From NCBI RefSeq assembly GCF_003018115.1, contig NZ_CP027457.1: a stretch of 64,000 nt of DNA, one strand, 5' to 3'. The notes beneath the pieces are model-generated. The model was not told the origin of the DNA and searched no databases. It saw only the letters and a list, made by a program, of their open reading frames with translations. Both the position numbers and the translations under genes were made by a program. Below are positions 5,888 to 62,368 of the stretch, in pieces; position 1 is the stretch's first letter; each line of letters begins with the position of its first letter. Source of the DNA: Escherichia coli. Lineage in GTDB: Bacteria > Pseudomonadota > Gammaproteobacteria > Enterobacterales > Enterobacteriaceae.

Positions 5888-6490
5888 ATGGAAGCGCGAA
5901 TTTCAACTGAACGGCATGTGCAGCGCCAACAGAAATTGAAGGAACAGGTCGATACGCGCGTCGCGGCGGCGATAGAGAAAAAAGGGATCTTGATTGTTTT
6001 CACCGGCAACGGCAAAGGGAAATCCACTGCCGCGTTTGGTACTGTGACGCGCGCGGTGGGTCATGGCAAAACGGTGGGGGTTGCGCAGTACATCAAGGGG
6101 CAATGGGACAACGGCGAATACAACCTTCTCCAGCCGCTGGGGGTTGAGTTTCATATTATGGGAACCGGTTTTACCTGGGAGACACAGAACCGGCAAGCGG
6201 ATATCGACGCGGCGAAAGAGGTCTGGTCGGAAAGCAAACGGATGCTGGCTGACAAGCGTTACGACTTAGTGGTGCTTGATGAGCTGACCTATATGCTGGC
6301 TTACCATTATCTGGATACCGAAGAAGTGATCGCTTCTCTGCAAAACCGCCCGGCACAACAAAGTGTCATTGTCACCGGACGCGGTTGCCACAGTCAGATA
6401 TTAAAAATGGCAGATACGGTCAGCGAAATCCGCCCCGTCAAACATGCTTTTGATAACGGCATACAGGCCCAGCCGGGTATCGACTGGTAA
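5888..6490 (+). CDS. ATP:cob(I)alamin adenosyltransferase, BtuR/CobA paralog, 200 aa
   Basis: P-loop VFTGNGKGKSTAAFG plus GFTWETQNR and LDELTYM motifs align along the whole length with E. coli BtuR as remembered. RBS AAGG upstream of the ATG at 5888. Confidence 0.85.
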   Translation: MEARISTERHVQRQQKLKEQVDTRVAAAIEKKGILIVFTGNGKGKSTAAFGTVTRAVGHGKTVGVAQYIKGQWDNGEYNLLQPLGVEFHIMGTGFTWETQNRQADIDAAKEVWSESKRMLADKRYDLVVLDELTYMLAYHYLDTEEVIASLQNRPAQQSVIVTGRGCHSQILKMADTVSEIRPVKHAFDNGIQAQPGIDW

Positions 6491-6493
6491 TAA

Positions 6494-6520
6494 CTGCGCC
6501 TGGCATCCTGCCAGGCGCAG
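6494..6520. terminator. hairpin CTGCGCCTGGCA-TCC-TGCCAGGCGCAG between convergent genes
   Basis: Perfect 12-bp inverted repeat lying between the adenosyltransferase stop (6490) and the LysR stop (6524), followed by GTTTTA. Confidence 0.5.
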
Positions 6521-14190: not shown

Positions 14191-14299
14191 TATGTGATCA
14201 ATTTCACTTGATTGAAATTATTTGTATTTTATTTGTATTATTTACAGGATGAGTTTATCGGGCATAATGGCTAAATTCGTATTAATGAGATGCTAAATC

Positions 14300-15022
14300 A
14301 TGGGACGGAAACCCTTATACCGACAGATTGCTGATCGCATTCGTGAGCAAATTGCGCGTGGCGAGCTTAAACCTGGCGATGCGTTACCCACTGAATCAGC
14401 GCTACAAACAGAGTTTGGCGTCAGCCGGGTTACGGTGCGCCAGGCTTTGCGCCAGTTAGTTGAACAGCAGATCCTCGAAAGTATTCAGGGCAGCGGGACT
14501 TACGTAAAAGAAGAGCGAGTCAATTACGATATTTTTCAGTTAACCAGTTTTGATGAAAAACTGACGGACCGTCACGTCGATACACACAGTGAAGTTCTGA
14601 TATTCGAAGTGATTCCGGCTGACGATTTTCTTCAGCAACAGCTACAAATCACCCCGCAGGATCGTGTGTGGCATGTGAAGCGCGTGCGCTATCGCAAGCA
14701 AAAGCCAATGGCGCTGGAAGAAACCTGGATGCCGCTTGCGTTGTTCCCGGATCTCACCTGGCAGGTCATGGAAAATTCGAAATATCACTTTATCGAAGAA
14801 GTGAAGAAAATGGTTATCGATCGTAGCGAACAGGAAATCATTCCTCTGATGCCAACCGAAGAGATGAGCCGTCTGCTTAATATCAGCCAGACAAAGCCGA
14901 TTCTTGAAAAAGTATCGCGTGGATATTTAGTTGATGGTCGGGTGTTTGAATATAGCCGCAACGCTTTTAATACCGATGACTATAAATTTACCCTGATAGC
15001 GCAGCGAAAATCATCGCGATAA
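14300..15022 (+). CDS. mngR: GntR/HutC-family repressor, 240 aa
   Basis: N-terminal GntR HTH (LPTESALQTEFGVSRVTVRQAL); divergent from mngA. Confidence 0.9.
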   Translation: MGRKPLYRQIADRIREQIARGELKPGDALPTESALQTEFGVSRVTVRQALRQLVEQQILESIQGSGTYVKEERVNYDIFQLTSFDEKLTDRHVDTHSEVLIFEVIPADDFLQQQLQITPQDRVWHVKRVRYRKQKPMALEETWMPLALFPDLTWQVMENSKYHFIEEVKKMVIDRSEQEIIPLMPTEEMSRLLNISQTKPILEKVSRGYLVDGRVFEYSRNAFNTDDYKFTLIAQRKSSR

Positions 15023-15024
15023 GC

Positions 15025-15125
15025 ACAAAAAAGGCCATCATACGATGGCCAACCATGTCGAAACCGACAGCCCTTCGCCATTCCTGTAGAGGGAAGCGGC
15101 GAGGGCTATTTCTTATTACAGATAT
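15025..15125 (-). ncRNA. sdhX: SdhX-type sRNA from the sucD 3' UTR, ending at a Rho-independent terminator (GGCCATCGTATGATGGCC + T-run on the minus strand)
   Basis: Hairpin and T-run seen directly downstream of the sucD stop. Assignment rests on established knowledge that the sdh-suc operon 3' UTR encodes SdhX; exact ends not determined. Confidence 0.5.
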
Positions 15126-15995
15126 TTATTTCAGAACAGTTTTCAGTGCTTCACCGATATCCGCCAGGCTGCGAACGGTTTTCACGCCTGCGGCTTCCAG
15201 AGCAGCGAATTTCTCATCCGCAGTCCCTTTACCACCGGCAATGATGGCACCCGCGTGGCCCATACGTTTGCCTTTCGGCGCAGTCACACCAGCGATGTAA
15301 CCCACAACTGGCTTGGTAACGTGCTCTTTGATGTACGCAGCCGCTTCTTCTTCAGCGCTACCGCCGATCTCACCGATCATCACGATCGCTTCGGTCTGCG
15401 GATCTTTTTCGAACATTTCGAGAATGTCGATAAAGTTAGAGCCAGGGATCGGGTCACCGCCGATACCGACACAGGTCGACTGACCGAAACCGTAATCTGT
15501 GGTCTGTTTAACCGCTTCATAGGTCAGTGTACCGGAACGGGAAACGATACCCACTTTACCCGGTTTGTGAATGTGACCCGGTTGGATACCAATTTTGCAT
15601 TCACCCGGGGTGATAACGCCCGGGCAGTTCGGGCCGATCATACGAACGCCGGCTTCATCCAGTTTCACTTTCACAGTCAGCATATCCAGCGTCGGGATGC
15701 CTTCAGTGATGGTGATAATCAGTTTGATGCCTGCGTCGATGGCTTCCAGAATGGAGTCTTTGCAGAACGGTGCTGGCACATAGATAACAGAAGCGGTAGC
15801 GCCAGTGGCAGCAACAGCTTCACGCACGGTGTTGAACACCGGCAGGCCGAGGTGGGTAGTACCGCCTTTACCTGGAGTTACACCGCCAACCATTTTGGTG
15901 CCGTAGGCAATGGCCTGTTCAGAGTGGAAAGTCCCCTGGCTACCAGTAAAGCCCTGGCAGATAACCTTGGTGTTTTTATCAATTAAAATGGACAT
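15126..15995 (-). CDS. sucD: succinyl-CoA synthetase alpha subunit, 289 aa
   Basis: Near-exact recall of E. coli SucD ([28 protein letters not shown]...). Confidence 0.95.
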
Positions 15996-43870: not shown

Positions 43871-44440
43871 TTATTTTTCTTCACTACGAAGCAGTTCATG
43901 CTGTATTTTTGTTAAACATTCGTAAGACTCATCTTTGTTCGGGAGATGTGCTGTCATTCGAGCATAAGTTGGCTTCTCATCTTTAAAATATTTAACCATG
44001 ATTGAATTATCAAGGACTGCCAACAACTGAGCTGGATCACTGCTCTTTTTTTGATAGATACCCGCTCTTATATAACTTCTAAACCGATCGCCGAGAAACG
44101 CCGTTTTTTCTGCTGTATTTATCAACTCCTGCAACGTTCCTTTGATGGTATGATTTTCATTAAGGCGTAGTGACCCGACGCGAATTAAGAGTCTCGCCCC
44201 GCTTGGTGTGAATTTATTATTTTTACATGTGCCCAGTTCTGTTTGCCAATAATACTCACCGATGTCCTCATTCTGATACCATCTCCACATGGCTTTATTA
44301 TTTAAGACAGGAAACGCGGAAAAAATAGTACCCTTAGCGAAAATAGTAAAACAATCATGATCTTTAGCTTGTATTTCGCAATCAGCTATAACACCAAAAC
44401 TAACAAATATCATCAGCAAAAAGAACAAAACTCTTTTCAT
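43871..44440 (-). CDS. Rhs immunity candidate with a Sec signal peptide, 189 aa (YbfC-like)
   Basis: Starts inside the last codons of the Rhs gene (4-nt overlap). N-terminus [21 protein letters not shown] is a classical signal peptide with a V-I-A cleavage motif. Confidence 0.6.
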
Positions 44441-47400
44441 TTTCTTATTCCTCTCGATGTTCTCTGTTTCATTTTAGCTAAAATTTCACCCAAATCATCT
44501 ATCCCTGCTGTTGCTGGCCCATCGGGTTTATTAATGTCTGGGAATAAATAGGGTTCTGCACAAGTATATCCTGGTGGTAATTGAGTTGTTGGCCAATTTG
44601 TCTGTGGCAGGTAATCACTTGCTGTCTTTGTATCCATCCCTGGATACTGGGGATCATCCTGTGGCGTACAAGTCAGATTTGGTTTTACCCACTTCCTGCA
44701 ATACAGTGTGTAGTCGTAAGGGCTTAATACTCTGAAGAATGTTTTGAAAACATTAGGCGCACTACTGGCCTGGTCAATAGGATATGGCAGTCTTAATTGT
44801 TTCGCTATGTCTGGCAATTTACTTGGATCGGGCGTAGGCGGTTTGTTGGGTCTCGCTCCATATCCGCCATTATTTAAGTGTCCATATTTTGATGCCAGTC
44901 CCATTGAATCTATATACTGAACCGGATTCAACGGATACTGATAAAAATTCCATCCCCCCTTCAGTCCAATCGGATCCTGAGTGATATATCGCCCCTGCAG
45001 CGGGTCATAATAGCGGTGGCGGTTGTAATACAGGCCGGACTCCTCATCATACTGCTGCCCCGGCAGGCGGATAAGCTGCTGCAGCTGATGCGGGTTCTCT
45101 TCATTCAGCAGGTTGCCCCACTCATCGTATTCTGCGCACCATTCTGTTGCCCCTTCCGTGCTGATAAGCACCAGCGGCAGGCCGCGATGGTCGCAGTGGT
45201 ACAGGTGAATTTTTCGCGCCGGCGTGTACACCGGGTCCAGCTGGTTTTGCATCTGCTTCACCGTCAGGCCGCACGATGCCAGCCAGCGGCGGCTTTCCTC
45301 ACTCACCCGGTCAGCCAGGATTTCACTTTCCAGCCGGTCGAGCATCTGCACCAGCACCGGCGGGAACACCACACTGCCACCGTCTTCGCCGCCGGACTGC
45401 TGAAGCGCATCCGCCAGGCTGCGGCGCTGCGTTTTCGCCAGCTCACCGGTGGCGGTTTCAACCCTGATGAGTGGCGTGAAGCTCCCCGGCTGATAAATCG
45501 TCTGGATGCGGGTTCTGTCGTTCTGTATTGTGGTCAGCCGGTCGCCGTCCCAGCCGTACCAGGTCACTTGCGGTTTCCGTGACAGCGACATCCAGCCCGT
45601 CAGGTCCCGTTCACGTCGCCACACCCGTTTTGCCACCCTGCGGCCCAGCGGGTCGTAAAGATAGCGACTTTCGACCAGCGGCTCTGCATATTGTGTCCGC
45701 GTGTAGTGCACCAGCCGGTGCTGACTGTCGTAATGGTACCGGTGGGTGCGCTCATCATCCGTGCGGATAACCCCTTCCGGGATGAGGTCGGTTTTCTCTG
45801 TCAGTCTGCCGTGACGGTCATACCGGTAAAGATAGTGCGCGTCACGGGCGATACGGTTATCCGGCCACATGCTGAGGGTGCTGTCCGGGTGCAGCTCCGG
45901 GTCGGGCAGGCGGTTACCTGCCGGGTCTGTGGCATACGGGATGCGGATATCCAGAGTTGAGGTGGTGGTGTGAACGCCGGTCAGCCTGCCGGTGGTGCTG
46001 TAGCTGTAACTCCGGGTATGGCGCGGGCTGCTGATGCGGATGAGTTCGCCGTTGTCGTTCCAGGTGTAATCGCGGTCATACTGCAGGCTGTTCAGGTGCT
46101 GACGCTGTAACTGCCCGGCAGGGGTGTAAGCGGTGGTGAGTTCATAACGGCCGAAGCTGCGCAGCGTTTCCCGGTGCAGGCGGTCGCGGGTGAAATCCAC
46201 CAGCGGTGTGTCGCCGAGCTTCATGCCTGCCAGGTAACCGCTGCCGTAGGCCAGCCATTCCACGGCGGGCAGGCTGTCCGGTATACAGCGGTTCGCCAGT
46301 CCCTGCGCGTTGTACGCATGTCTGGTCTCATGCTGCCAGAGCAGTGCTTCCGTCTGCGGGTGATGCACCGTCTGACGCTCACCGGTCAGCCGGCCTTTCT
46401 CATCATACCCGTAATGCACCGTCACCCGGTGCCCTTCGCTGATATGGCTGATGTCTGTCAGCCAGCCGCGTTCGTCGTACCGCCACCGCTCTGCGGTTTC
46501 ACCCTTCACGGTGCGCTGCGTGAGGCGGTCTGCTTCGTCATAGTGCCAGTGGGTGACCAGCCCCTCATCCTCGCTGCGGATAAGTTTGCCGGTCAGGTCG
46601 TGGTGATAACGCTGTGTGCGGCCGTCAAAGCCGGTTTCCTGTATCAGCCGGTCGAGTACATCGTAACGGAAGGTGGTGTGGCTGCCGTTTTCACTGGTCA
46701 GGCGGATGACCCGTCCGGCAGCATTGTATTCCATACTGCGCGTCAGACCGCCCTGCGTGGTACGGATGGCCTTTCCCCACGCATCGTACTGTGTCCCGTT
46801 TCTGCTGCCGTCCGGGGCAATGACGGCGGTCAGGTCACCGGCGATGTTGTATTCATACCGCATTTCATGGCCCTGCATGTCTTTCACCGCAATTAACTGT
46901 CCACGGCTGTCGTATGCACGGTACTGGCTCAGCCCTTCCTCGCGGTGCACCGCCGTCATCTGCCCGAAGCGGTCATGGTCATAACGGGTTACATAACCGG
47001 AACAGTCGGTGAAGCTCAGCAACTGGCCGTAACGGCTCCATGTCATGGTTTTCCGGCTGCCGGTGGCATCGTCCGTTGCGCAGGGTAAGTCACTGTGTGG
47101 ATTATCATAACGGTAGCGGGTGATATCGCCGTTGTGTGCAGTTTCCTGAATCAGACGGCCCAATTCATCATATTCCCGGCGTATTTCCAGCCCGTCTGGC
47201 CCGGTGGCTGACGTTAACTGGCTGTGGTGGTTATAGTAAAACGCCGATGCCCTGCCATCCGGCGTGGTGATGCGCGTGATGAGTCCCGTCACCACATCCG
47301 GGCTGTACTCAGTCGTCCGGCCTGCGGCATCCGTCTGTGCCTTAAGCCTGCCCACCGCGTCAAACTGACTCTGCGTGACGCTGCCGTCCGCGTGTTCCTT

Positions 47401-48636
47401 TTTCACCACCCGCTTCAGCCCGGCTTCACCCTGCGTGTGCAGGACTTCACGGCGGTCCAGGCTGTCGGTGATGGTGATGCGGTCTTTCTCATACTGATAC
47501 GTGTAGCTTAAGCCTGCCGGGTTTAGCTGTTCTGTCACCCGCCCGTCGCGGTCGTAACGGTAACGGATTTCCGGTCGGCCCGTGTGACGGTGCGCCACCA
47601 TCCGGCCCCGGTATTTATCATCGTAAGTAAAGCTGCGCACCTGTGTATTGCTGCGGTCATACACCGCCGCCAGTTCGCCGCGCGGCGTCCAGCCATAGCG
47701 CACCAGCGGCGCGGCAGGTAAATTCTCCGGGTATTCCGGGTCGTGCGTCAGCCACACGGCAGACAGACGGATGCCGTTGTCCCGGCCATATTCGGTGTAA
47801 CCCGGCAGGGTATCAGGAAAAGCGGACGGTTCCGTCCCGCCGGAAATGGCCTGCTGCCGGGCTTCTTCTGCCCGCTGCGCCTGCGTGGTCAGTACCAGCC
47901 GGAAGTGACGCCCGGCACCATCCGTCACGCCGGTGATTTCGCCGCTGAATTCACCGGCGGCTTCGCGGTGGAACGTCTGTGTGCGCCCGAAGCGGTCCAC
48001 CAGCCCGGTCAGTACCCGGTACGGCGGCAGCGGCGCAGGCAGCACCTCATCCGCTTCCGGCACCCGCTCACACCAGCCGAGCAGCCACCACGGCCCCTGC
48101 GGGCTGTTTGTCGCCAGATAACGATGCGGACTTAAGCGGAGTTCTTCCGGCAGCGCCTGCCAGAGTGCGGCCAGCCGGTGACCTTCATCCAGTTTCGCCA
48201 CACCGCCGCGCACCAGCCACAGTGACTCGCTGCGGCTGTAACCGTCCTCACGGGGAAACAGGTGCTCAAAATACAGGCTTCTGCCGCCGTTATCACTGAG
48301 TATCAGTGTGTTATCGCGCAGCTGTAAGCGGATATCCGCAGGCATTTTCCAGCCGGGGCCGAGGCTCCCCACCGGCGCGGGCGTTTTTGTCCGGTAACTG
48401 CTGTAGGTGCGGGAGAGAATGAACGGCAGCGGGGCGGGCAGGGCGATGTCGGTTTCACCGGGAAGGACCTTTGCACCCAGCAGCGGATTGACCGGATGGC
48501 CGGACGTCACTCCGCCGGGGCACACCGAACAGGCCACGCCGGTGGGGGCACCAATGCGCACCCCGGCTGAACCCTGGACAATGCTACCGCCATACTGCGT
48601 CATGTCGCCCTGACGCGCCGCCGGTTTTCCGCTCAT
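44437..48636 (-). CDS. rhsC: Rhs-family polymorphic toxin, 1399 aa: conserved core with YD repeats, then a ~150-aa variable C-terminal toxin domain after [27 protein letters not shown]
   Basis: N-terminus [33 protein letters not shown] and YD-repeat core match E. coli Rhs proteins as remembered; locus position next to ybfA/kdp corresponds to rhsC. C-terminal domain family not recognised. Confidence 0.9.
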
Positions 48637-48824: not shown

Positions 48825-48859
48825 AAAAAACCGCCAGCGTTTCCGCTGGCGGTTTTCAA
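48825..48859. terminator. bidirectional hairpin AAAAAACCGCCAGCGTTTCCGCTGGCGGTTTTCAA downstream of ybfA
   Basis: GC stem flanked by an A-run and a T-run, 20 bp after the ybfA stop on the minus strand. Confidence 0.55.
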
Positions 48860-48878: not shown

Positions 48879-49085
48879 TCAGTAAAAATCACCAGTTGCC
48901 TTTTCGGCCTGATCCATCCACACCGGTTTATCGCTGGTTTTCGACCAGACGCGATGCAGGTAGCTGTAAAAGCGGGCGCGGTCTTTCCAGAAAAGCATGA
49001 AAGGCAGCGCCAGAACGCCCGCTGCAACCGCATAAGTACGGCGTAAAAAGATAAGCCATGCAGGATATTCTCTGTAGAGTTCCAT
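48879..49085 (-). CDS. ybfA: small membrane protein, 68 aa (DUF2517)
   Basis: [33 protein letters not shown]; synteny between the Rhs locus and kdp. Confidence 0.8.
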
Positions 49086-49294
49086 ACTTTTCTCCCCCTT
49101 TTGTATCTACCCGGTGAATAGCACCGGAAAAATGAATTTGTTTATCTGATGAAAATAGTACCGCCTTTTGTGTAATTTTACTACTCATCCGACCACTTAT
49201 TTTTGCTTATTGATGGTTTATTTACATTCACCCTGTAATTAAGTTACACAAAAGTTAAATTAATACTAAACATTAGTTAAATCATGGCTTTTGC

Positions 49295-62340: not shown

Positions 62341-62368
62341 AAAAGCCAACCTGCGGGTTGGCTTTTTT
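62341..62368. terminator. Rho-independent terminator after fur (AAAAGCCAACCTGCGGGTTGGCTTTTTT)
   Basis: Hairpin with flanking A- and T-runs read directly. Confidence 0.65.

Follow-up and report, generated by a model that had tools for sequence, protein, structure and literature searches.

The small RNA gene sdhX of Escherichia coli, its probably one-directional terminator, and a putative 3' extension of convergent mngR across both

In Escherichia coli, the last gene of the sdhCDAB-sucABCD operon, sucD, and the repressor gene mngR are transcribed towards each other, and only a short interval lies between their stop codons. This arrangement raises the question of which RNAs end in that interval, and of whether the hairpin that closes the operon transcript can also stop RNA polymerase arriving from mngR. 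From the letters alone, a sequence-only reading of positions 15025-15125 had proposed that the 3' untranslated region (UTR) of sucD carries an SdhX-type small RNA (sRNA) whose terminator faces one way. Here, we describe a computational analysis of this proposal within a window of 64,000 nucleotides (64 kb) of E. coli DNA (contig NZ_CP027457.1, assembly GCF_003018115.1), the whole stretch to which all positions refer; the features are collected in Table 1. We consider it very probable that the best overall explanation is the known sRNA SdhX, ending at a one-directional terminator through which mngR-sense transcription appears to read.

Table 1. Features at the sucD-mngR junction, in window positions
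Feature	Position	Strand	Basis
mngR, GntR/UTRA-family repressor, convergent with sucD	14300..15022	+	ORF list, NC_000913.3, Pfam GntR + UTRA; stop TAA 15020-15022
Small hairpin TGACGGTCCGTCA then GTTTTTC, inside antisense mngR	14562..14574	-	terminator-like scan site
Inferred mngR 3' UTR, antisense to SdhX nt 13-99	15023..15113	+	plus-strand sequence, fold, mapped terminus
sdhX (b4764), annotated 101-nt long form of 3' UTR-derived sRNA	15025..15125	-	annotation, 100% identity, fold
U6 tail of sdh-suc/SdhX, mapped 3' end 15027	15027..15032	-	Term-seq, TRS
Terminator hairpin GGCCAUC-GUAU-GAUGGCC, 7 bp, loop GUAU	15033..15050	-	fold, shuffle counts, covariation
SdhX seed UUCGACAUGGU, SdhX nt 64-74	15052..15062	-	exact match to published seed (PMC6393394)
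SdhX 5' stem-loop, SdhX nt 19-57, holding E. coli-specific katG-pairing segment (C34)	15069..15107	-	fold -22.0 kcal/mol
Reverse-facing terminator-like element: hairpin 15069-15107 then AUUUCUUAUU (15108-15117)	15069..15117	+	fold, shuffles, TRS termini
sucD CDS, final gene of sdhCDAB-sucABCD	15126..15995	-	ORF list + NC_000913.3; stop TAA 15128..15126

It is virtually certain that the minus strand of 15025-15125 is sdhX (b4764, formerly RybD), the known sRNA in the sucD 3' UTR. The 121 bases around this stretch align at 100% identity with E. coli K-12 MG1655 (NC_000913.3), an alignment from which the mapping g = 780175 - w was taken (g, MG1655 position; w, window position), and the sdhX ncRNA at 765050-765150 in that record coincides exactly with 15125..15025. 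Its neighbors there are sucD (764180-765049) and, on the opposite strand, mngR (765153-765875), and its first base is the one that follows the sucD stop codon. Folding of the 101-nt RNA gives -41.3 kcal/mol (z = -4.7), and none of 200 shuffles is as low. Following the sucD TAA on the minus strand come AUAUCUGUAAUAAGAAAU, a long imperfect hairpin (15107..15069), single-stranded GUCGGUUUCGACAUGGUU, the terminator hairpin (15050..15033), UUUUUU (15032..15027) and GU. Alignment to the annotated gene had been suggested as the check on an SdhX-type sRNA, and a seed unlike that of known SdhX as the contrary outcome; the coordinates prove to be exact, the published seed UUCGACAUGGU is present letter for letter at 15062..15052, and these findings, together with the position after sucD and the pairing with ackA described below, bear out the proposal.

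A scan against Rfam 15 at E <= 1 matched no SdhX family, which says nothing against membership because no SdhX model appears to exist; a match to rli24 elsewhere is a chance one. In the PGAP-annotated genomes that match the region only sucD and mngR are annotated, the gap between them is empty, and the sRNA is named only in the curated MG1655 record. Reading the sequence by itself had recovered a real sRNA that automated annotation pipelines skip. Since the feature is SdhX itself, the finding is already known; the biogenesis, seed and targets of the sRNA have been published, and the finding is correct but ordinary.

SdhX is Hfq-dependent and is cut by RNase E from the sdhCDAB-sucABCD mRNA, giving a long form and a 38-nt form (PMC6393394; PMC9438474). 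According to the review PMC9438474 it was also described by De Mets et al. (2019), and an SdhX-related entry is marked 'TEX sensitive' in PMC7213987. When we scanned for a promoter belonging to sdhX itself, only a 9/12 match within sucD was returned, which is at chance level. Cleavage by RNase E would release forms of ~101 nt and 38 nt, both keeping the seed and the terminator with its Hfq-binding U-tail. The seed sits immediately upstream of the terminator stem-loop, and UUCGACAUGG of SdhX pairs with CCAUGUCGAG of ackA, positions -2 to +8, across the AUG, in a duplex of -17.1 kcal/mol; in this calculation, for which only the single-stranded seed region of SdhX was used, 76 of 2000 mononucleotide shuffles reached this energy. 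Applying RNAduplex to full-length SdhX and ackA was rejected as an approach, as it gave meaningless full-length pairing that was no better than shuffles. An Hfq-CLASH chimera joins 765114-765133 of the sucD 3' UTR to ackA (PMC7213987). The seed represses ackA, and E. coli SdhX also represses fdoG via G62 (PMC6393394; PMC9438474) and katG via a non-conserved upstream 'variable region', as tested with the compensatory mutation C34G (PMC6393394). C34 falls in the 5' hairpin and G62 just ahead of the seed, which is the placement given in PMC6393394. By pairing across the ackA start codon the seed would repress acetate kinase, and the E. coli-specific 5' stem-loop would carry the katG-pairing segment.

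The hairpin at the end of this RNA, GGCCATCGTATGATGGCC (15050..15033), is a perfect 7-bp stem with five G-C pairs and a 4-nt loop, at -11.5 kcal/mol, and the minus strand reads GGTT, hairpin, TTTTTT (15032..15027) and then GTGC. Under strict criteria (a perfect stem of 7 bp or more with five or more G-C pairs, a loop of 3-8 nt, and six or more T no further than one base away), three such sites, this one among them, were counted on the two strands of the 64-kb window, against a mean of 0.04 in dinucleotide-preserving shuffles, and chance is not a plausible explanation of hairpin plus T-run; a lenient scan was non-discriminating, with 4 sites and 3.8 expected in shuffles. The stem is also upheld by covariation in 10 Enterobacteriaceae sequences, which had been fetched by a seed-plus-T-run pattern that did not contain the hairpin: all 69 of 69 cells of the seven pairs are paired, and three of the seven pairs show compensatory changes, among them A-U to G-C and C-G to U-A. 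Term-seq places a 3' end on the final U of the tail, 765148(+) = w15027, with scores of 19841.8 and 34703.6 that are among the strongest in the genome (PMC7815308 suppl. 1), and TRS analysis of RNAtag-seq gives sdh-suc/SdhX 3' peaks at 765149/765151 (PMC10687069). The earlier statement that sdh-suc transcription stops at this hairpin, which would supply the 3' end of SdhX, agrees with the top-ranked Term-seq position; minus-strand sdh-suc transcription would end at an intrinsic terminator made of the hairpin and U6, with its 3' end at 15027.

Even in its own direction, the SdhX terminator is incompletely efficient. A Rho-dependent termination region at 765604(+) = w14571 (Rho score 2.86, p 2.3e-5; PMC7815308 suppl. 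2) lies on the same strand ~450 nt downstream of this terminator and coincides with a small hairpin at 14574..14562. As the region is inside antisense mngR, some sdh-suc transcription therefore passes the SdhX terminator and is cleared by Rho.

Read on the plus strand, this palindrome has AAAAAA before it and AACCATGTCG after it (AACCATG, no T-run). The T-run, as had been noticed from the sequence, follows the hairpin on the minus strand only, where it is TTTTTT; with a U-tract on one side only, we conclude with considerable confidence that the terminator acts on the sdh-suc strand and is one-directional. Tests for a bidirectional intrinsic terminator gave the same picture: the hairpin at 15033-15050 is not flanked on each strand by an upstream A-tract and a downstream U-tract, nor do the two 3' ends lie on the two sides of one hairpin, since they map to 15027 (-) and 15112/15113 (+) with two hairpins between them. 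Elsewhere in the window, a palindrome at 48826-48856 (AAAAAA-CCGCCAGCGTTTCCGCTGGCGG-TTTT), situated between two minus-strand ORFs (48928-49188 and 44437-48636), differs from 15033-15050 in having T-runs on both sides, T6 on the minus and T4 on the plus strand. Further strong terminator-like sites are found on the plus strand at 6494-6520 (CTGCGCCTGGCATCCTGCCAGGCGCAG then GTTTTAC; -23.8 kcal/mol) and at 62345-62362 (GCCAACCTGCGGGTTGGC then TTTTTT).

The distances at the junction are very short. From the mngR stop it is 2 nt to the annotated end of sdhX (15025), 4 nt to the T-run and mapped 3' end (15027) and 10 nt to the base of the hairpin, so that the 3 bp given by the sequence-only reading is about right (15025 minus 15022). 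Such closeness would suit a bidirectional terminator, at which the small hairpin pauses the mngR polymerase and head-on collisions with sdh-suc transcription release the RNA: mngR and sucD are convergent, with only 4-10 nt from the mngR stop to the element, and under the collision model such terminators 'do not resemble intrinsic terminators' (bioRxiv 10.1101/2022.10.23.513370). Expression of sdh-suc is, moreover, far above that of mngR, the Term-seq score being in the tens of thousands and mngR ends being absent (PMC7815308). However, the plus strand is without a U-tract after the small hairpin, and its terminus is found ~60 nt past it, none being listed in the TRS tables at 15051-15060 (PMC10687069). 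We regard release by collision at the small hairpin as improbable.

The plus-strand terminus directs attention to a second hairpin (15069-15107), which was overlooked by the author of the sequence-only reading. It is the reverse complement of the SdhX 5' stem-loop, folds at -23.4 kcal/mol on the plus strand, and is directly followed by AUUUCUUAUU, in which 7 of 10 bases are U and the longest U run is 3; the terminator scan missed it because its stem has bulges. Single hairpins of <= -22 kcal/mol with 5 or more T among the next 8 bases occur three times in the 64-kb window, this one included, compared with 0.3 in shuffles. This contrast overstates significance, because the hairpin owes its existence to the sense strand and the plus strand adds no more than the T-rich tail. 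From the fold, a mngR-sense 3' end was forecast at 15112-15118 (765057-765063 on the MG1655 minus strand) before the published termini were found. The supplement of PMC10687069 lists on that strand a terminus at 765059-765067, dominant at 765062 (w15113; signal 0.88; adjusted p 5.8e-6, 1.3e-11 and 0), from the authors' LB RNAtag-seq and, from a re-analyzed earlier data set, one at 765060-765068, dominant at 765063 (w15112), both data sets being the product of one method (RNAtag-seq + TRS) and one laboratory. The earlier data set is probably Barsheshet 2022, to judge from sheet order and the three libraries. The TRS pipeline labels the 765062/765063(-) terminus 'Antisense sdhX', not mngR, and its authors do not discuss it (PMC10687069). 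The terminus lies 91 nt past the mngR stop, within the T-rich tract and 5-6 nt from the end of the stem. The Adams Term-seq tables (PMC7815308) do not contain it, an absence that may reflect low mngR expression. Mapping of mngR 3' ends had been named as a check on the claim that the small hairpin is unlikely to terminate mngR; the published terminus, at w15112/15113 in two RNAtag-seq data sets, and the missing plus-strand U-tract both speak for that claim.

A promoter scan found consensus-like plus-strand promoters only upstream of mngR, at 14212-14268, and no promoter-like site on this strand between 14300 and 15060. The mngR RNA would thus pass the small hairpin, continue antisense to SdhX and stop at ~15112-15113 after the second hairpin and AUUUCUUAUU. 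The convergent transcripts would overlap over 15027-15113, ~87 nt, and each would traverse the hairpin of the other on the way to its own. Whether the mngR-sense RNA ends at the second hairpin by intrinsic termination is, in our judgment, evenly balanced.

One alternative accepts the end at 15112/15113 as real and denies that it is a site of termination: transcription would run on antisense to sucD until Rho or collisions halted it, and the RNA would then be trimmed to the hairpin by a 3' exonuclease or cut as a duplex by RNase III. Rho-terminated transcripts are reportedly trimmed back to upstream hairpins, a report credited to Dar and Sorek in 2018 that counts in favor of trimming here. So do the weakness of the U-tract after hairpin 15069-15107 (longest run 3), the great stability of the hairpin on the plus strand (-23 kcal/mol) and the fact that Rho-dependent clean-up acts at this locus in the opposite direction. 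A terminus 5-6 nt after the stem and within a T-rich tract is, however, what intrinsic termination predicts, and we look upon a trimmed or cleaved end as a possible but doubtful origin.

The plus-strand 'terminus' might also be a library artifact, leaking across strands from a sharp SdhX 5' end at about nt 13-14, or might belong to an antisense RNA that does not come from the mngR promoter. SdhX has one of the most abundant 3' ends (PMC7815308), cleavage near the stop codon yields its long form (PMC6393394), and the terminus is seen with RNAtag-seq only. Yet two independent data sets contain it, the lowest adjusted p being 0, and the 38-nt form has no corresponding antisense peak listed at its 5' end (PMC10687069). 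The same stretch of plus strand, 14300 to 15060, in which no promoter-like site was found also tells against a separate antisense RNA. RNase E prefers U two bases after its cut, and SdhX nt 12-14 (A-A-G) misfit this preference. An artifactual or unrelated origin therefore strikes us as quite unlikely, and the simplest reading remains that mngR RNA stops after the second hairpin. The plus strand additionally holds an 81-aa ORF (15055-15300) that runs antisense into sucD from an ATG-TCG complementary to the SdhX seed; with no visible ribosome-binding site, and with the plus-strand RNA apparently ending at 15113, it makes no credible gene.

The junction was then viewed across genomes. Of 5,426 complete E. 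coli genomes, 5,425 match the region, and in 3,882 (72%) the match takes in 80% or more of the query and so extends into mngR. In the others it spans sucD and sdhX and stops at the T-run or shortly beyond; in an evenly spaced sample of E. coli rows most break off at w15020-15027, and in loci L002 and L003 the break falls at 6174-6182. In O157:H7 a LysR/cobO/fumarate-hydratase island stands after sdhX instead of mngR, and another strain has TPR and RtcB genes; sdhX in both has the same sequence except for one loop base. The SdhX terminator, at which these genomes diverge, is thus the edge of a variable region, a junction at which 72% of E. coli genomes carry mngR-mngAB. In one strain, E. coli FDAARGOS_944 (NZ_CP065613.1, 6148-6960, ~window 15053), IS1 lies inside sdhX directly after ...TTTCGACATGG, with mngR after the IS; the element parts the seed from the terminator hairpin, and normal SdhX should be missing there.

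Beyond E. coli, public genomes were scanned with the pattern TTTCGACATGGTN{14,30}TTTTT. About 90% of the matches listed are chance ones in unrelated phyla, and at least 14 usable Enterobacteriaceae loci are among them, Salmonella and Klebsiella not being represented among the matches listed. Because the pattern contained both seed and T-run, the invariance of these two elements in the compared loci is circular. Among the matches listed, 12 of the 13 other Enterobacteriaceae loci have the seed 33-71 nt beyond the point where the SucD match ends, the thirteenth being cut at a contig edge, and all 13 have a G+C-rich hairpin right after the sucD stop, then the seed, then the terminator. An outer stem of the 5' hairpin, AGCCCU/AGGGCU, is common to Escherichia and three of four Citrobacter, and the inner part, which pairs with katG in E. 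coli, differs. On the antisense side, the T-rich tract of this hairpin is present in Escherichia and Citrobacter (up to T7) and not in Enterobacter, Pluralibacter or Superficieibacter, and its distribution does not follow that of abutting convergent genes. The mngR gene abuts sdhX directly in one Enterobacter genome and is 1 kb away in Superficieibacter; E. albertii (L015, 3852-4196) and Superficieibacter electus (L023, 7819-8685) have a different convergent ORF with its stop inside the terminator A-run. This ORF (C-terminus ...SIMLK*) is 288 aa long in Superficieibacter, where it matched no Pfam family, and is shortened to 114 aa in E. albertii.

The idea that the 5' hairpin and its antisense T-tract exist on account of mngR was rejected on these grounds. 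Both are identical in three E. coli genomes without mngR at this place and are present in E. albertii, and the T-tract is even stronger in Citrobacter, where the downstream gene points in the same direction and no convergent gene abuts. Being present without mngR, the hairpin and its A-rich tract show that the reverse-facing terminator shape did not evolve for mngR, which, on comparison of these sequences, would at most use it. A role in SdhX itself is another possibility for the A-rich tract, such as an (ARN)n motif for Hfq or a site of RNase E entry; the tract may also be neutral.

If the mngR-sense end is real, a trans-acting sRNA has at this locus a naturally occurring cis-antisense partner, found in part of the species only. 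We attach little likelihood to the stronger proposition that the mngR 3' UTR is the perfect antisense of SdhX nt 13-99, seed included, and that the two RNAs act on each other. Were it true, pairing of the abundant SdhX, or of the sdh-suc 3' end, with the 3' UTR of mngR could change the stability of the latter, for instance via RNase III, and expression of a TCA-cycle operon would thereby be coupled to repression of mngAB, the PTS genes for mannosylglycerate. Induced mngR transcription could, conversely, sponge SdhX or interfere with its synthesis. Any such cross-regulation would be limited to the 72% of E. coli genomes with mngR at the junction. Cis pairs are often filtered from Hfq-CLASH tables. 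The Hfq-CLASH supplements of PMC7213987 have no mngR entry. Our search of the literature on mngR with SdhX, sucD or terminator turned up no discussion of the mngR/sdh-suc 3' overlap; mngR occurs 0 times in the SdhX paper PMC6393394, and the SMRT-Cappable-seq supplements mention neither mngR nor sdhX. The mngR 3' UTR antisense to nearly all of SdhX is the only part of the present account for which we found no discussion in the literature.

Compared with known systems, the sRNA shows no difference from SdhX as described by Miyakoshi et al. (2019; PMC6393394), with the same locus, sequence (100%), seed, terminator and ackA complementarity. It shares with other sRNAs released by RNase E from 3' UTRs (CpxQ, SroC, NarS, MalH and GlnZ; PMC9438474) an operon terminator that serves as the Hfq-binding 3' end, a seed just upstream of it, and the lack of a separate promoter. 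What sets SdhX apart from these five is that the stop of a convergent gene lies 4 nt from the T-run, and that the sdhX gene is therefore entirely under its neighbor's inferred 3' UTR. Work on Staphylococcus aureus by Lasa and colleagues in 2011 is said to have found genome-wide antisense overlap, with convergent 3' UTRs processed by RNase III. The perfectly complementary convergent 3' ends are alike in the two cases; here the overlap, and any duplex or RNase III cleavage within it, would be hypothetical, and one partner is an abundant trans-acting sRNA. The overlapping bidirectional terminators revealed by SEnd-seq (Ju, Li & Liu 2019; model in bioRxiv 10.1101/2022.10.23.513370) resemble the present locus in comprising a convergent pair with overlapping mapped 3' ends and a hairpin-forming overlap. 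The putative mngR/sdh-suc overlap differs from them in being long (~87 nt) and in containing two hairpins, each with a U-rich tail in one direction only, so that the ends flank the whole region and not one shared hairpin.
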